This document shows positions 18,603 to 63,131 of a stretch of DNA of 64,000 nucleotides, one piece after another. The stretch comes from a virus: positions 32,001 to 96,000 of IMG/VR virus record IMGVR_UViG_3300034073_002480. One strand, given 5' to 3'. The stretch's first letter is position 1. Every line of letters begins with the position of its first letter. The notes below the pieces were generated by a model that did no database searches, was not told where the DNA came from, and saw only the letters and a program-made list of their open reading frames with translations. Made by a program: the position numbers and the translations under genes.

Positions 18603-19736
18603 ATGCAATACAAGATTTGTGACTTTAATAATAAGCAAATTCTTCCTGAGCTTAAAAAACAAGGAATTTACAAGATCGAGACATCTGATAACAGATGTTA
18701 TGTAGGTAGCGCAGGACGTAATTTTAGACATAGATGGACTGGGCATCTACATTCCTTACGAAACAACAAACATCATTCTCAGTATTTGCAGAATATCTTC
18801 AATAAATATGGTGAAGATTTTCTACAGTTTTCTATTTTGGAAGTCGTTACTAAAGATAAAGAGCAGCTTATAAGTCGTGAACAGTATTGGATTGATTTGC
18901 TACAACCTTGTCTGAATATTTGCCCTAATGCTGGTAACAATCTTGGTTACAAACACACAGAAGAATTTAAATTAAATAGGTCAAAACAGTCTAGAGAAAA
19001 GAGTGATTTTGAAGGTGTTGTAATAACACAGACAGGTAGATTCAGCGCTCAAATCTATGTACGTGGTAACAGAGTAGGTCTAGGGTGCTATGGCACACGT
19101 GAGGAAGCATTACAAGCTAGAGAAGAAGGTAAACTAACTTTCTGGAATGACTCCGTAGATGCAATGTCTGAAGAAGAGTTGGCTGTTTTTATAAAGCAAC
19201 GTAAAGAAAGTAGAAATGGTTATCTGATGATGCCATCAAAAACTGGTGAGTACTATATAGATTTCCAGCGAAATAGGTATATTTTTAAACATACTAGACC
19301 TAAATACCACTGTAAGTATTTTAAAACTCTTGAAGAGGCAGTAATCTACAGGGATGCATATCTGGCTTCAGGTTGTAGTTTAGAAACACCTAAAAAAGTT
19401 GCAAACTCTGGCGAGAAGCATATTAGAGTTACTGATTGTGGTAACTATAGATTCTATATTAGAAAGCCTAATTATAGTCAGATTTTTAAGACATTAGAAG
19501 AAGCTGTTGCCGCGAGAGATGCTTATTTTGCAAAAGACTATAAAGAAACTAGCTCTAGAAAACCACCAAAATCTGGTCATAAACTTATAAGAGAGACTCG
19601 CTATAACACTTACGAGTTTAGGCACAGTCCAACTAAACATCATAAATACTTCCCAACACTTGAAGAAGCAGTCGCGTACAAACAACAGTACCTCGAAAAT
19701 CTAAAAGCCTCACACCAGAATCCAACTGATGACTAG
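18603..19736 (+). CDS. Free-standing GIY-YIG homing endonuclease with C-terminal AP2-like DNA-binding repeats
   Basis: GIYKI...CYVGSA, R and E catalytic positions (FRHRW, SREQYWI); AP2-like GV...GRFSAQI...LGCYGTREEA plus three F-x-TLEEAV repeats. Confidence 0.85.
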   Translation: MQYKICDFNNKQILPELKKQGIYKIETSDNRCYVGSAGRNFRHRWTGHLHSLRNNKHHSQYLQNIFNKYGEDFLQFSILEVVTKDKEQLISREQYWIDLLQPCLNICPNAGNNLGYKHTEEFKLNRSKQSREKSDFEGVVITQTGRFSAQIYVRGNRVGLGCYGTREEALQAREEGKLTFWNDSVDAMSEEELAVFIKQRKESRNGYLMMPSKTGEYYIDFQRNRYIFKHTRPKYHCKYFKTLEEAVIYRDAYLASGCSLETPKKVANSGEKHIRVTDCGNYRFYIRKPNYSQIFKTLEEAVAARDAYFAKDYKETSSRKPPKSGHKLIRETRYNTYEFRHSPTKHHKYFPTLEEAVAYKQQYLENLKASHQNPTDD

Positions 19737-19779
19737 GGATTACAAAACCCTTGTTTTAAGCACTAAACTAGTGAGGCAT

Positions 19780-19856
19780 TGGCTTGTCAGGAAGGATTTG
19801 AACCTTCGACATCCGAGGTAGAAGCTCGGTGTTCTTATCCGCTGAACTACTGACAA
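19780..19856 (-). tRNA. tRNA-Arg(TCT) with encoded CCA
   Basis: Cloverleaf: acceptor TTGTCAG/CTGACAA, D stem GTTC/GAAC, anticodon arm CCGAG-CTTCTAC-CTCGG, T arm GAAGG-TTCAAAT-CCTTC, then G-CCA. Confidence 0.92.
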
Positions 19857-19927
19857 TTCCTTCGCTACGGGTCGAACGTAGAATAGAAGATCCAAATTCT
19901 TCTGTGATACCATTTCACTACAAAGGA
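19857..19927 (-). tRNA. tRNA-Gln(TTG), no encoded CCA
   Basis: Acceptor TCCTTTG/CGAAGGA, D stem GTGA/TCAC, anticodon arm GAAGA-ATTTGGA-TCTTC, T arm CTACG-TTCGACC-CGTAG. Confidence 0.88.
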
Positions 19928-28916: not shown

Positions 28917-29311
28917 CTTTTTTAAAATAAAAATCATACAAAAAATAAAAAGTATGTTTTGATATAGCTTCTAGCCTCAAAAGTATGAAATACTTATCAT
29001 AATTAATATATGTATGAGCTTGAAAACGTTGCAGTAAGCCAATATTGAAAAAGTATGATGGCTGGCTTTTATCTATTCTCTCTGAAAAAAACAAACATCC
29101 GTCCGATAGGACATCCTTGCCACAACAAACATAGTCTCATCCTAGTGCATAGTCCTCTAACTCATCATAAAAAGCAAAAGTACGTTCCAAAACTTCTGTA
29201 CCATCAGTACAAACCCAAATCAAATACCACATACCCATAAACCGAAACTGTGTAAGATAGGAAACTGTGTTCATAAATGCAAAGATCATAGAAAGGGAAG
29301 ATGAAGACAAC

Positions 29312-29568
29312 AAAGGGATAGCTTTTACACTACCCCTTCATTTTCTAAGCTGCTACCAAGGTGGATTTACGGGCTTTGAAAGATACGATATTGTTCGCAT
29401 TTACTTTTTGCTATCTAGTGATATTGCTCATAAAACTCACACATGAATCTAGTTTTAATTACCAGTCGAGACCCTTATACCCACTTATAAAAGTCCTAAC
29501 ACCTTGGTAGCTAATGTAGGTAGCTGGAGTCGAACCAGCGTGTTGCTAATCTCCCTAGATTCCTCAAT
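29312..29568 (-). ncRNA. ssrA: Circularly permuted (two-piece) tmRNA
   Basis: Order on the minus strand: T arm GCTGG-TTCGACT-CCAGC (29539-29523), 3' acceptor TACCTAC-A (29522-29515), 30 nt intervening segment, 5' acceptor GTGGGTA (29484-29478, giving G3:U70), D-loop GGGTCTCGAC, helix CTAGATTC/GAATCTAG, resume signal TAAAT-GCG, tag ANNIVSFKARKSTLVAA-stop (29398-29345), 3' hairpin 29338-29313. Confidence 0.93.
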
Positions 29569-29575
29569 AACACTA

Positions 29576-30220
29576 CTATATTAATTCTTTTTCTATGTTG
29601 GTGTCAATATCATAGAAAAAACAATCGGTGTCGGCAGAAACCCATCTATCACCCATAACTTCAACACTTAGGAAAGAAGTATCAACTTTCCATTTAGATA
29701 GTTTTTGTATATCCTTGTTAGTCACCCAATTACTATCGCGCCACAATAACCTGTTGTTAGGCATCAGATACAGCCGACCATCATCTCCAGCAAGCAAGTG
29801 TCCACACTTATAATCTTGAGGCTCATCACTGTAGCTATTATCGAACCAATCAATAGTGAACATATAAGTTGCTTCGATATACGTCCTGTCTTTAAGTGTG
29901 ATTTGGCACTTATGATACTTCAGAAAATCATAGGTAACAACATGAGCATTTTCACTAAACATATCCCATAGCTGGTGATAGTGGAAAGGTATGTCAGGGG
30001 TAGTGGGTACTTTAGTATAGACTTCAGAAATAGGTACTCTACTTCTCATAGCGCCATTATCGGCAAGCACATGGAACGTCAGTATCTTGCCACTGATGGA
30101 CTGTACAGCAAAGCATATAACTTCATACCAGTTATCTTTGTCCTGTTCATTCTTTGTGAACCAAGATTCACGTACCAAAGCACGAAAATGAGGGATGTTA
30201 AAGTTCATACTAAAATTCAA
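29576..30220 (-). CDS. Conserved hypothetical phage protein
   Basis: 214 aa with motifs TFHV...GA..SRVPIS, QLWD.FS, YMFTIDW, K.GH, PNNR. Confidence 0.65.
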   Translation of the reverse strand: MNFSMNFNIPHFRALVRESWFTKNEQDKDNWYEVICFAVQSISGKILTFHVLADNGAMRSRVPISEVYTKVPTTPDIPFHYHQLWDMFSENAHVVTYDFLKYHKCQITLKDRTYIEATYMFTIDWFDNSYSDEPQDYKCGHLLAGDDGRLYLMPNNRLLWRDSNWVTNKDIQKLSKWKVDTSFLSVEVMGDRWVSADTDCFFYDIDTNIEKELI

Positions 30221-57272: not shown

Positions 57273-57905
57273 TTAAGACATCGATATCAAGTTACGCACA
57301 ACCTGTTTTTGTTTCCAATGCTTTGCAGTGTCTTGTATATGCCCTTGCCTTACAAACTTACCTATGTTCAAACGAAAGTCCTCATAACCAAAAGAACCAG
57401 CATTGCGTATGACATAACCTTCAGTCACAGAGAAATCCAACTTTCTTTCTATGTCTCGTATCTTCTGGCGATCATACAACCCATAGTATAAAACAGGTAC
57501 AGGGGTAACGCCTAACAACGCAAACCAGTCTAAAGTGTCAGACCATGATAAACATTGATTAGAATCGTTCCATATAGAAAAACCGTAGAAATAAGTGGTG
57601 AGGTTATTATAAAAAATACTGTGTTTAGCATATACGTTTTCACCGCAAAGTCGCCAATTTACAGGGATATCATGTTGGAAGCCAGTGAATAACTGTTTAA
57701 CCCAATCTCTACTTTCATGACTAGCAGAGTCTATACTCCTAGCATGAGAATAGTTAGAGTAAACTGTTGTATTTTCACCATCTAGTTTCTCAGTAACAAC
57801 TACTGTCATACTTTCAAACTGTGTATCTGTTTGTAATGTTTTGTCATCACTAGTTGCACTTTGTGACCAAGGTAGATGATAAGTGCGTGGGTATTTAGTA
57901 TACAT
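57273..57905 (-). CDS. RNA ligase (Rnl2-like nucleotidyltransferase domain)
   Basis: KYPRTYHLPWS, TEKLDGEN, GEN, EGYVIR. Confidence 0.85.
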   Translation of the reverse strand: MYTKYPRTYHLPWSQSATSDDKTLQTDTQFESMTVVVTEKLDGENTTVYSNYSHARSIDSASHESRDWVKQLFTGFQHDIPVNWRLCGENVYAKHSIFYNNLTTYFYGFSIWNDSNQCLSWSDTLDWFALLGVTPVPVLYYGLYDRQKIRDIERKLDFSVTEGYVIRNAGSFGYEDFRLNIGKFVRQGHIQDTAKHWKQKQVVRNLISMS

Positions 57906-61985: not shown

Positions 61986-62046
61986 AATAACACCATAGAA
62001 AAAACAAAAGACGCTGCCGAAACAACATCTTTCTTTTATTTATAAA

Positions 62047-62118
62047 TAGGCGCGGTTGGATTCTAACCAACATACCATCTGTTATGAGCAGAGTTCCTTG
62101 ACTGTCGGACACGCGCCC
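62047..62118 (-). tRNA. tRNA with CAT anticodon (elongator Met or lysidine-Ile2), no encoded CCA
   Basis: Acceptor GGGCGCG/CGCGCCT, D stem TCC/GGA, anticodon arm TCTG-CTCATAA-CAGA, T arm GTTGG-TTAGAAT-CCAAC. Confidence 0.8.
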
Positions 62119-62150
62119 AAATGAAGGTTATACGTTACCTACAAACGTGA

Positions 62151-62810: not shown

Positions 62811-63131
62811 TTAGATTTGATGTGTACCTTCAACATTACGTTGTTCACGTTGTTGAGTGCGATGATTTAACCAGTGTAATGCTTCTTCAAGCTTGGTGAT
62901 AGCAAGTGCATTTTCACGACAGGCAAACTTAGAAGATTGGTAGTATTGAATCCTTTGCAAAGCGGCAGCAATTACAGTTTCAACAAAAGCACCATTAGGT
63001 TGTTGGCGTTCAGCACCACGACCTAAAGCACCATCTTGCCAATCGATCCGTAATCCAGTTCCAACTACATAACCACCAGCAGGATTTCCATCAGGATCAT
63101 TATAGTTTTTAAATTCAAATGTATCAATCAT
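62811..63131 (-). CDS. tad1: Tad1-like anti-Thoeris / anti-CBASS signalling-molecule sponge
   Basis: WQDG...NG...R..YYQ..KFACRENALAITKLEEALHWLNHRT..R..RNVEGT matches the Tad1 signature. Confidence 0.8.
   Translation of the reverse strand: MIDTFEFKNYNDPDGNPAGGYVVGTGLRIDWQDGALGRGAERQQPNGAFVETVIAAALQRIQYYQSSKFACRENALAITKLEEALHWLNHRTQQREQRNVEGTHQI

Follow-up and report, generated by a model that had tools for sequence, protein, structure and literature searches.

The 64,000-nt window analysed here, bases 32001-96000 of the 138,722-base IMG/VR virus record IMGVR_UViG_3300034073_002480 (complete according to CheckV), carries on its minus strand a circularly permuted transfer-messenger RNA (tmRNA) gene, read from the sequence at approximately positions 29575-29303. 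Sequence comparison makes it likely that this gene belongs to, or derives from, the two-piece tmRNA lineage of cyanobacteria and cyanophages, stripped to a minimal form, and that it would serve a freshwater cyanophage as a working two-piece tmRNA. The Rfam model of permuted tmRNAs (RF04321, tmRNA_permuted) aligns with 29572-29345 over the whole model (positions 1-213) and scores 54.7 bits, against a gathering score of 47 (E = 6.6e-08 for the 64-kb window); this is its single match in the whole 138.7-kb genome, and it exceeds chance. A sequence-only reading had proposed just such a phage-borne permuted tmRNA with a cyanobacterial-style ANNIV tag, which the RF04321 score bears out, and the elements, coordinates and pairings that it listed on the minus strand all proved correct on reading of the sequence, with a scripted check of the acceptor stem (7/7 pairs). 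The check by ARAGORN and covariance models that it had suggested gave a divided outcome: RF04321 lies above its cut-off, the cyanobacterial two-piece model RF01851 reaches 35.5 bits against a cut-off of 70, and ARAGORN made no tmRNA call at 29575-29303, though it called dozens of permuted tmRNAs in the other loci examined.

The gene order is permuted, not colinear as in a one-piece tmRNA, with the T-arm and the 3' acceptor strand placed upstream of the 5' acceptor strand. From 5' to 3', the features are as follows.

29578-29607, minus strand: promoter-like site TTGACA - 18 nt - TAATAT, with 10/12 consensus matches, within the 3' end of the upstream open reading frame (ORF)
29515-29575, minus strand: acceptor piece (Rfam alignment, co-fold of the halves, pair table, sequence)
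29575-29565, minus strand: outer-helix strand UAGUG-U-UAUUG, in the acceptor piece
29562-29555, minus strand: P2 strand GAAUCUAG, in the acceptor piece, pairing with CUAGAUUC
29551-29544, minus strand: P2 strand GAUUA-G-CA, in the acceptor piece, pairing with UG-G-UAAUU
29539-29523, minus strand: T-arm GCUGG-UUCGACU-CCAGC, canonical, with a 7-nt T-loop
29522-29516, minus strand: 3' acceptor strand UACCUAC
29515, minus strand: discriminator A73
29485-29514, minus strand: intervening spacer, 30 nt
29445-29484, minus strand: start of the coding piece (Rfam alignment, co-fold, pair table)
29484-29478, minus strand: 5' acceptor strand GUGGGUA
29474-29465, minus strand: D-loop GGGUCUCGAC, with UCGA (the D-loop region UAAGGGUCUCGAC is 29477-29465)
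29464-29457, minus strand: P2 5' strand UG-G-UAAUU
29452-29445, minus strand: P2 5' strand CUAGAUUC
29399-29444, minus strand: usual PK1 region (co-fold and conservation in the homologue alignments)
29444-29427, minus strand: 18-nt loop with the family-invariant AGUUUUAUGA
29426-29416, minus strand: strand CAAUA-U-CACUA, predicted partner of the RNA's extreme 5' end
29415-29399, minus strand: A-rich single strand GAUAGCAAAAAGUAAAU, ending in GUAAAU, before the resume codon
29345-29398, minus strand: tag reading frame of 17 codons, ANNIVSFKARKSTLVAA, with the stop UAG at 29347-29345 (scripted translation, Rfam alignment)
29398-29396, minus strand: resume codon GCG (Ala)
29303-29344, minus strand: post-tag hairpin region (fold), with the core AAGGGGUAG / CUAUCCCUU at 29338-29313

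All 7 pairs of the acceptor stem are formed, and G3:U70 together with A73 makes up the alanine identity set. The alanine resume codon opens a tag with a hydrophobic, Ala-rich C-terminus, followed directly by the stop. CCA is absent from the gene, A73 being followed by UUA. The post-tag hairpin, of up to 14 bp (-17.8 kcal/mol), runs into the U-rich UGUUGUCUUC, and the hairpin and U-rich tail are likely to form the 3' end of the coding piece. The extreme 5' end of the RNA (29575) starts directly after the stop codon of the upstream ORF, and the promoter-like site would set the transcript start near 29573-29570. Such sites are no commoner in the 1.5-kb region (4) than in shuffled sequence (mean 6.4), so that this one is to be read as a consensus match and not as a sign of function.

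Co-folding of the acceptor-side and coding-side halves recovers the T-arm plus a nested P2, composed of GAUUA-G-CA/UG-G-UAAUU and the 8-bp GAAUCUAG/CUAGAUUC, and adds an outer helix of 5+5 bp (29575-29565 with 29426-29416) that encloses the 18-nt loop with AGUUUUAUGA. The whole RNA folds better than its shuffles (z = -3.67), with 1/200 of these folding equally well. When the precursor is folded without constraints, spacer letters 29511-29500 (GCUACCAAGGUG) pair with 29363-29352 (CACCUUGGUAGC) in the 3' end of the tag frame. The two form a perfect complement of 12 nt, and perfect inverted repeats of at least 12 nt were seen in 4/1000 dinucleotide shuffles; the other spacer letters can form pairs with the D-loop and the 5' acceptor strand. 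After the tag there is one hairpin and no further pseudoknot domain. In the alignment with RF01851 the last 92 positions of the model, its 3' domain, are essentially empty, and the 5' hairpin of the model is likewise absent from the window's gene; the earlier description of a compact RNA that has lost its downstream pseudoknots is therefore correct. The precursor would measure ~270 nt and the two pieces ~240 nt together, with ~61 nt in the acceptor piece and ~180 nt in the coding piece. For the standard one-piece model, RF00023, no match was reported in the window, one lower-scoring overlapping match of the same clan having been left out, and no riboswitch family was found there at Rfam gathering scores.

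Homologues of the gene are present in two cultured Pseudanabaena phages, PA-SR01 and Pam2. The PA-SR01 copy (MT234670, ~116300-116640, minus strand; L377:1455-1800(-)) lies inside an unannotated 632-nt gap and aligns with RF04321 over its full length at 31.9 bits, under the threshold. The Pam2 copy (ON014754, ~110880-111130, minus strand; L500:480-752(+)), also unannotated, was found by blastn from PA-SR01 (E = 3e-15) and has no Rfam match at E <= 1; ARAGORN called neither copy. An nhmmer profile of the three genes scores 145-170 bits on each of them, and between the 5' acceptor strand and the terminal hairpin they align well, with a mean column identity of 74%, the invariant blocks including AGUUUUAUGA, CUAG and the A-rich resume context. 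MAFFT failed on the acceptor halves, with their spacers of 30 nt versus 6 nt, and the acceptor pairs were therefore tabulated by coordinates. The scripted check finds the acceptor stem fully paired (7/7) in 3/3 genes, although pairs 2:71, 5:68, 6:67 and 7:66 have changed on both sides, whereas G1:C72, G3:U70, G4:C69 and A73 are constant. In all three genes the resume codon encodes alanine, the tag closes with VAA or VAV (AKNNICQFSRKAAPVAA in PA-SR01 and AKNQIVKFARKSTPVAVAV in Pam2), and the stop is followed by a hairpin of -17.8 to -20.7 kcal/mol. This is the pattern that selection for alanine charging and tagging would be expected to produce, and with three genes it is modest evidence for such selection.

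The PA-SR01 and Pam2 copies thus resemble the window's gene in the permuted order, G3:U70 and the post-stop hairpin. They differ in their spacers, of 6-8 nt rather than 30 nt, and the Pam2 copy encodes CCA, whereas the window's gene does not. Since the spacers of both copies are so short, the complement between spacer and tag is peculiar to the window's gene. PA-SR01 and Pam2 are given as 94.69% identical over 57% of the genome in PMC9382816, and despite this genome-wide likeness their acceptor stems and T-arms are quite different, the T-loop of Pam2 comprising 11 nt as read from the sequence. Upstream of the tmRNA, the window and PA-SR01 have non-homologous genes.

The same contrast between the two halves of the gene is seen among close variants in metagenomes. 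Variant 1, from an aquatic metagenome, has 5 differences over 29133-29469, of which the four listed all fall within 29243-29301, downstream of the RNA, and the lake-type variant 1 has no listed difference in 29302-29469; we count this pattern as apparent purifying selection on 29302-29469. Variant 2 has one letter changed, which turns a C:G pair of the spacer/tag complement into U:G. In variant 3, 67 other letters stand in place of positions 29470-29525 (56 nt), which hold both acceptor strands, the spacer between them and the first part of the T-arm, and in a contig from another run 29470-29588 (119 nt) are swapped for 128 other letters. These differences between contigs, like those between PA-SR01 and Pam2, indicate a conserved mRNA-like half alongside a tRNA-like half that is turning over. 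In a further metagenome variant, the post-tag hairpin has another stem sequence that, judged by eye at a loose contig end, is still able to pair.

Its capsid and terminase matches and its occurrence in freshwater metagenomes place the carrier most probably among freshwater cyanophages, as a distant relative of the siphoviruses PA-SR01 and Pam2. Its genome has the gene set of a tailed phage, with terminase, portal, capsid, tape measure, family A DNA polymerase, ribonucleotide reductase and ligase. The capsid protein matches 2 of 50,697 phage records only, those of PA-SR01 (137 kb) and Pam2 (143 kb), at 33% identity, and the same two phages are among the best-scoring matches of the terminase (227 bits each). 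About a dozen metagenome studies of freshwater, lake and aquatic sites, not counting the possible source, contain DNA nearly identical to this stretch. As the sequence-only reading had stated, there is no smpB in the window; PF01668 searched over six frames of the whole genome likewise gave 0 matches at E <= 0.1.

The window contains four phage tRNA genes (Thr, Arg, Gln and Met, at 19706-19927 and 62046-62119, minus strand), of which tRNA-Arg alone encodes CCA. The genome also holds a set of RNA repair and tRNA maturation genes, comprising a CCA-adding-type nucleotidyltransferase with a PolyA_pol head domain, a Thg1-like enzyme, RlaP, two RNA ligases and a kinase-like AAA_33 protein; all are on the minus strand, outside the window at L373:1639-2529, L373:2985-3668, L372:3861-4952, L372:16991-18367 and L372:12570-12992, and inside it at 57273-57902. 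In genome coordinates the nucleotidyltransferase occupies 117639-118529. Together with the tmRNA and the fast turnover of its tRNA-like half, this set suggests, as we infer, an arms race over the host's translation apparatus, its tRNAs and its ribosomes. As a separate observation, a small protein encoded at 62811-63128 of the window, minus strand, matches the Acb2/Tad1 hairpin domain by a narrow margin (28.3 bits, cut-off 27) and may be an anti-defence nucleotide sponge.

The affiliation of the gene with the two-piece lineage rests on several comparisons. RF01851 is the sole clade-specific tmRNA model reported for the window. When an nhmmer profile of the family's coding piece (~185 positions) was run over the 500 loci collected, the best matches outside the family included two-piece tmRNAs of picocyanobacterial type, L362 (E = 1.5e-7) and L347 (E = 1.3e-6), which were covered nearly in full (profile positions 2-167 and 10-169), whereas the one-piece cyanobacterial-type tmRNA L351 (E = 3.1e-7) was matched at positions 74-140 only, the resume and tag part. 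In the alignment, the stretch from P2 to the resume codon resembles the two-piece type and not the PK1 of L351, and the short spacer of PA-SR01 and its flanking letters also resemble the two-piece type. The sequence-only reading had inclined to an independent permutation, in which a one-piece cyanobacterial or phage tmRNA was duplicated and rearranged within a phage lineage, apart from the two-piece lineage of picocyanobacteria. This view can draw on the resume context and tag start, which are nearest to L351 and almost identical to it (31 nt at 90%), on the ARK...LVAA part of the tag, which resembles the L351 tag ANNIVPFARKQALVAA, and on the one-piece tmRNAs of the related contigs L009, L010, L014 and G004. 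The cultured relatives, moreover, infect Pseudanabaena, outside the picocyanobacteria in which a two-piece tmRNA was reportedly described by Gaudin in 2002. An independent permutation nevertheless fits poorly with the two-piece model being the sole clade-specific one reported, with the near full-length profile matches to L362 and L347 against the partial one to L351, and with the likeness of the stretch from P2 to the resume codon to the two-piece type; as for the one-piece tmRNAs in the related contigs, these carry another tag (ANMNKVFSLLGEEVAVAA) and have no profile match at E <= 1. We regard such an origin as distinctly unlikely, and leave it what room it has because the comparison is lopsided, with a single one-piece cyanobacterial-type sequence, L351, set against about 30 two-piece ones. 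The related claim that the tag is nearer to one-piece tmRNAs holds for the resume context and tag start; it does not hold for the ANNIV motif, which two-piece phage tmRNAs carry too and which therefore cannot separate the one-piece from the two-piece type.

The gene could also be a non-working relic, or a decoy that binds host SmpB, alanyl-tRNA synthetase (AlaRS) or EF-Tu and so blocks host trans-translation, as has been proposed, according to PMC4131195, for a gene of mycobacteriophage DS6A that comprises the tRNA-like domain only. Hypervariability of the tRNA-like half in close variants (56 nt to 67, 119 to 128), the missing T-arm of PA-SR01 and the odd one of Pam2, the want of pseudoknots, the unusual U2:A71 and the DS6A precedent would all suit that reading. 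In the window's copy, however, the T-arm is canonical, the alanine identity set is present and the tag frame is unbroken; tag frame, hydrophobic C-terminus and stop are kept in 3/3 homologues, and the mRNA-like half is the most conserved part, a conservation that a decoy would not need and a relic would lose. We therefore give a relic or decoy little credence. Still more remote, to the point of being highly improbable, is the idea that the feature is a fragment of a host tmRNA serving as attachment site (attP), or a chance tRNA-like sequence beside a short ORF. It is true that tmRNA genes are described as common integration sites (PMC9004378, PMC11915505), but the gene is complete in both its halves, none of the 146 ORFs scanned against Pfam matched an integrase family, the covariance-model E-value speaks against chance, and the homologues show compensatory changes. 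We also consider, as a rather unlikely extension, that the genes of the window, PA-SR01 and Pam2 make up a lineage of their own in freshwater cyanosiphoviruses, with a minimal two-piece tmRNA free of pseudoknots, whose tRNA-like half would be rapidly swapped or remodelled, even to the loss of the T-arm, while the mRNA-like half is kept. If so, the lineage would have its own permutation or a non-classical mode of action, for instance one that depends less on the T-arm or one in which the excised 30-nt spacer acts as antisense to the 3' end of the tag.

Several observations weigh against a working two-piece tmRNA of the cyanobacterial lineage. ARAGORN makes no call; the score with the clade-specific model RF01851 is far under its cut-off; U2:A71 stands in place of the usual G2:C71; and no canonical PK1 could be drawn upstream of the resume codon, where the Rfam hairpin at the PK1 site aligns poorly and, with three homologues only, the repeated palindrome CUAG permits alternative pairings. 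One metagenome variant has a G to A change at 29573 that would break a pair of the predicted outer helix unless the partner has changed as well. In the Rfam alignment PA-SR01 is without a T-arm (17 model positions reduced to 1), and because the tRNA-like domains of the homologues are deviant, the family may not all act as classical tmRNA. The phage has no SmpB, so that function would rest on the host, whose genus the 33% capsid identity to Pseudanabaena phages is too low to fix, and the CCA-adding-type enzyme, whose best NCBIfam match is CCA tRNA nucleotidyltransferase, reaches 75.8 bits against a family cut-off of 290, which shows superfamily membership only. Finally, no contig of the RNA-type sequencing runs spans the tmRNA. 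The contigs of three such runs at a likeness of at least 88% cover 29100-29244 and parts of 29581-29632, and one run, probably of DNA, also covers 29341-29409. As a side observation, three RNA-type runs of different studies each have a contig of ~125-145 nt over 29100-29244, the stretch of small ORFs downstream of the tmRNA, at a likeness of at least 95% and with a 1-nt deletion; this stretch may be a conserved or transcribed element, or may reflect DNA carry-over in the libraries.

On balance we hold a working two-piece tmRNA to be likely, and from the observed signature in sequence and structure, its conservation and its covariation we infer the following course of transcription, processing, charging, tagging and benefit. 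Transcription, driven by the promoter-like site (29607-29578) or reading through out of the upstream ORF, would yield one precursor of ~270 nt. RNase P would cut 5' of G29484 and a 3' processing enzyme after A29515, freeing the 30-nt spacer, and CCA would be added by a host enzyme or by the phage's CCA-adding-type enzyme. Since the 3' acceptor end lies inside the transcript, charging could occur only after cleavage behind A29515, so that a functional RNA, if there is one, would consist of two pieces. The acceptor and coding pieces would be held together by the acceptor stem and the long P2, and host AlaRS would charge the RNA by way of G3:U70 and A73. Because the phage encodes no SmpB, the host's SmpB, AlaRS, EF-Tu and proteases would serve: SmpB and EF-Tu would bring the RNA to stalled ribosomes, where translation would resume at GCG and add ANNIVSFKARKSTLVAA, and the tagged protein would be marked for host proteases. 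What the phage probably gains is additional ribosome rescue during infection, while mRNAs and tRNAs are being cut.

A natural minimal tmRNA whose two pieces total ~240 nt, and in which no pseudoknot domain can be recognised, amounts to a natural experiment on what trans-translation needs, and because PA-SR01 and Pam2 grow on Pseudanabaena in culture, function is open to bench testing. The published genomes of these phages leave the tmRNA gene unannotated, which points to a gap in detection. ARAGORN misses all three family members, and the clade-specific Rfam model is under threshold for two of them and has no match for Pam2; surveys that rely on these tools will therefore undercount phage tmRNAs.

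Searches for further relatives were largely negative. A distant-mode blastn search with 501 nt against the 50,697 phage records gave no match; an exact 22-mer of T-arm and acceptor strand had 0 hits in viral contigs, and the acceptor-stem pattern in permuted order had 0 in viral and 0 in metagenome contigs. The permuted layout with the window's D-loop variant was found in 1 viral locus (L272), where ARAGORN finds no tmRNA. Near the same upstream gene in 25 viral loci, no permuted tmRNA was found by blastn, by ARAGORN (25/25), by the family's nhmmer profile or by Rfam (gathering scores on L002-L021, E <= 0.01 on L022-L026 plus L002-L004), and the whole records of 5 of these loci had no RF04321 match above cut-off. 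Four contigs with this upstream gene, L009, L010, L014 (202-523(+)) and L271 (G004:C1:148338-148724), carry a one-piece tmRNA (RF00023, 89-92 bits), from which it follows that relatives of the window's phage hold different tmRNA forms; the tag called by ARAGORN in L009, L010 and L014 is ANMNKVFSLLGEEVAVAA, and no call was made in L271. The D-loop pattern occurs, among the matches listed, in many cellular phyla, its 5 viral matches being due to chance, and the matches listed for the resume-context motif are dominated by alpha-type phage tmRNAs, so that it does not define the family. Separately, L390, L415, L456, L495 and other viral contigs have long tag frames with the same resume context, for example ANVNKTVTVSGKNVKFSARTAKEALAV or ANADTFDFSAMSFTGN...KVALAA, as identified by script only.

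Phage-encoded tmRNAs, those in two pieces included, are well documented. In the survey of Buchholz et al. (2022, PMC9004378), 402 of 18,146 phage genomes had tmRNA genes; these fell into 133 unique structures, of which ARAGORN suggested 53 to be two-piece, 50 of these 53 coming from marine or aquatic phages; the supplementary table of that paper marks S-CAM1, S-CAM3, S-CRM01 and S-SSM7 as 'Permuted' and contains no Pseudanabaena phage. A 2025 tmRNA database is stated to hold 79 bacteriophage sequences (PMC11915505); one of its supplementary files has no Pseudanabaena and no ANNIV, though its other supplements may list such sequences. The word tmRNA has 0 occurrences in the text of the PA-SR01 paper (PMC10286775), and in the Pam paper (PMC9382816) it appears only in the title of the ARAGORN reference. 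In our own collection, ARAGORN called 42 permuted tmRNAs in the 118 viral loci fetched by layout pattern, 0 of them with an ANNIV tag. With a pattern based on the tag, 10 viral loci were recovered whose two-piece tmRNAs bear the tag ANNIVAFSRSK[S/T]TALV; these loci are homologous to stretches of S-CAM1, S-CAM3, S-CRM01 and AG-345-P14, and 19/22 selected metagenome loci had permuted tmRNAs with ANNIV tags.

The two-piece tmRNAs of T4-like cyanomyoviruses (Synechococcus phages S-CAM1, S-CAM3 and S-CRM01, the marine virus AG-345-P14 and many uncultivated contigs) share with the window's gene the permuted order, an ANNIV-type tag (for example ANNIVAFSRSKSTALV) and, by eye in L278, G3:U70. They are, however, ~300-350 nt long, have a structured post-tag domain and 5-8-nt spacers, lie in tRNA clusters and are called by ARAGORN, whereas in the window's gene the 3' domain is absent and the spacer is 30 nt long; this gene lies by itself with protein genes on either side, goes uncalled by ARAGORN and shows no similarity to these tmRNAs in blastn. 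Its phage, with a family A DNA polymerase and a capsid matching only PA-SR01 and Pam2, is not T4-like. The cyano_tmRNA family of Prochlorococcus and marine Synechococcus (RF01851) resembles the gene in the D-loop, the ANNIV start of the tag and a consensus without CCA; the window's gene departs from it in lacking the 5' hairpin and the last 92 positions and in an acceptor stem that starts GUGGGUA. Cyanobacterial two-piece tmRNA is described as already reduced, with one transient pseudoknot versus five in one-piece forms (PMC1242208). The alphaproteobacterial-type two-piece tmRNAs of marine and aquatic phages (Melnitz, pelagimyophages, phiCbK-like phages) are likewise phage-encoded and have a similar UAAAUGC resume context, but their tags are of the form ANDE..ALAA, unlike that of the window's gene; they have been proposed to sustain the hijacked translation machinery, and some are reported to carry a glutamine riboswitch (PMC9004378). 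Two-piece tmRNAs of phages, including those of cyanomyoviruses with ANNIV-type tags, have thus been published before, and the kind is not new. What we have not found in print, and what is new here, is a reduced, fast-evolving subfamily of two-piece tmRNAs in siphovirus-like freshwater cyanophages.

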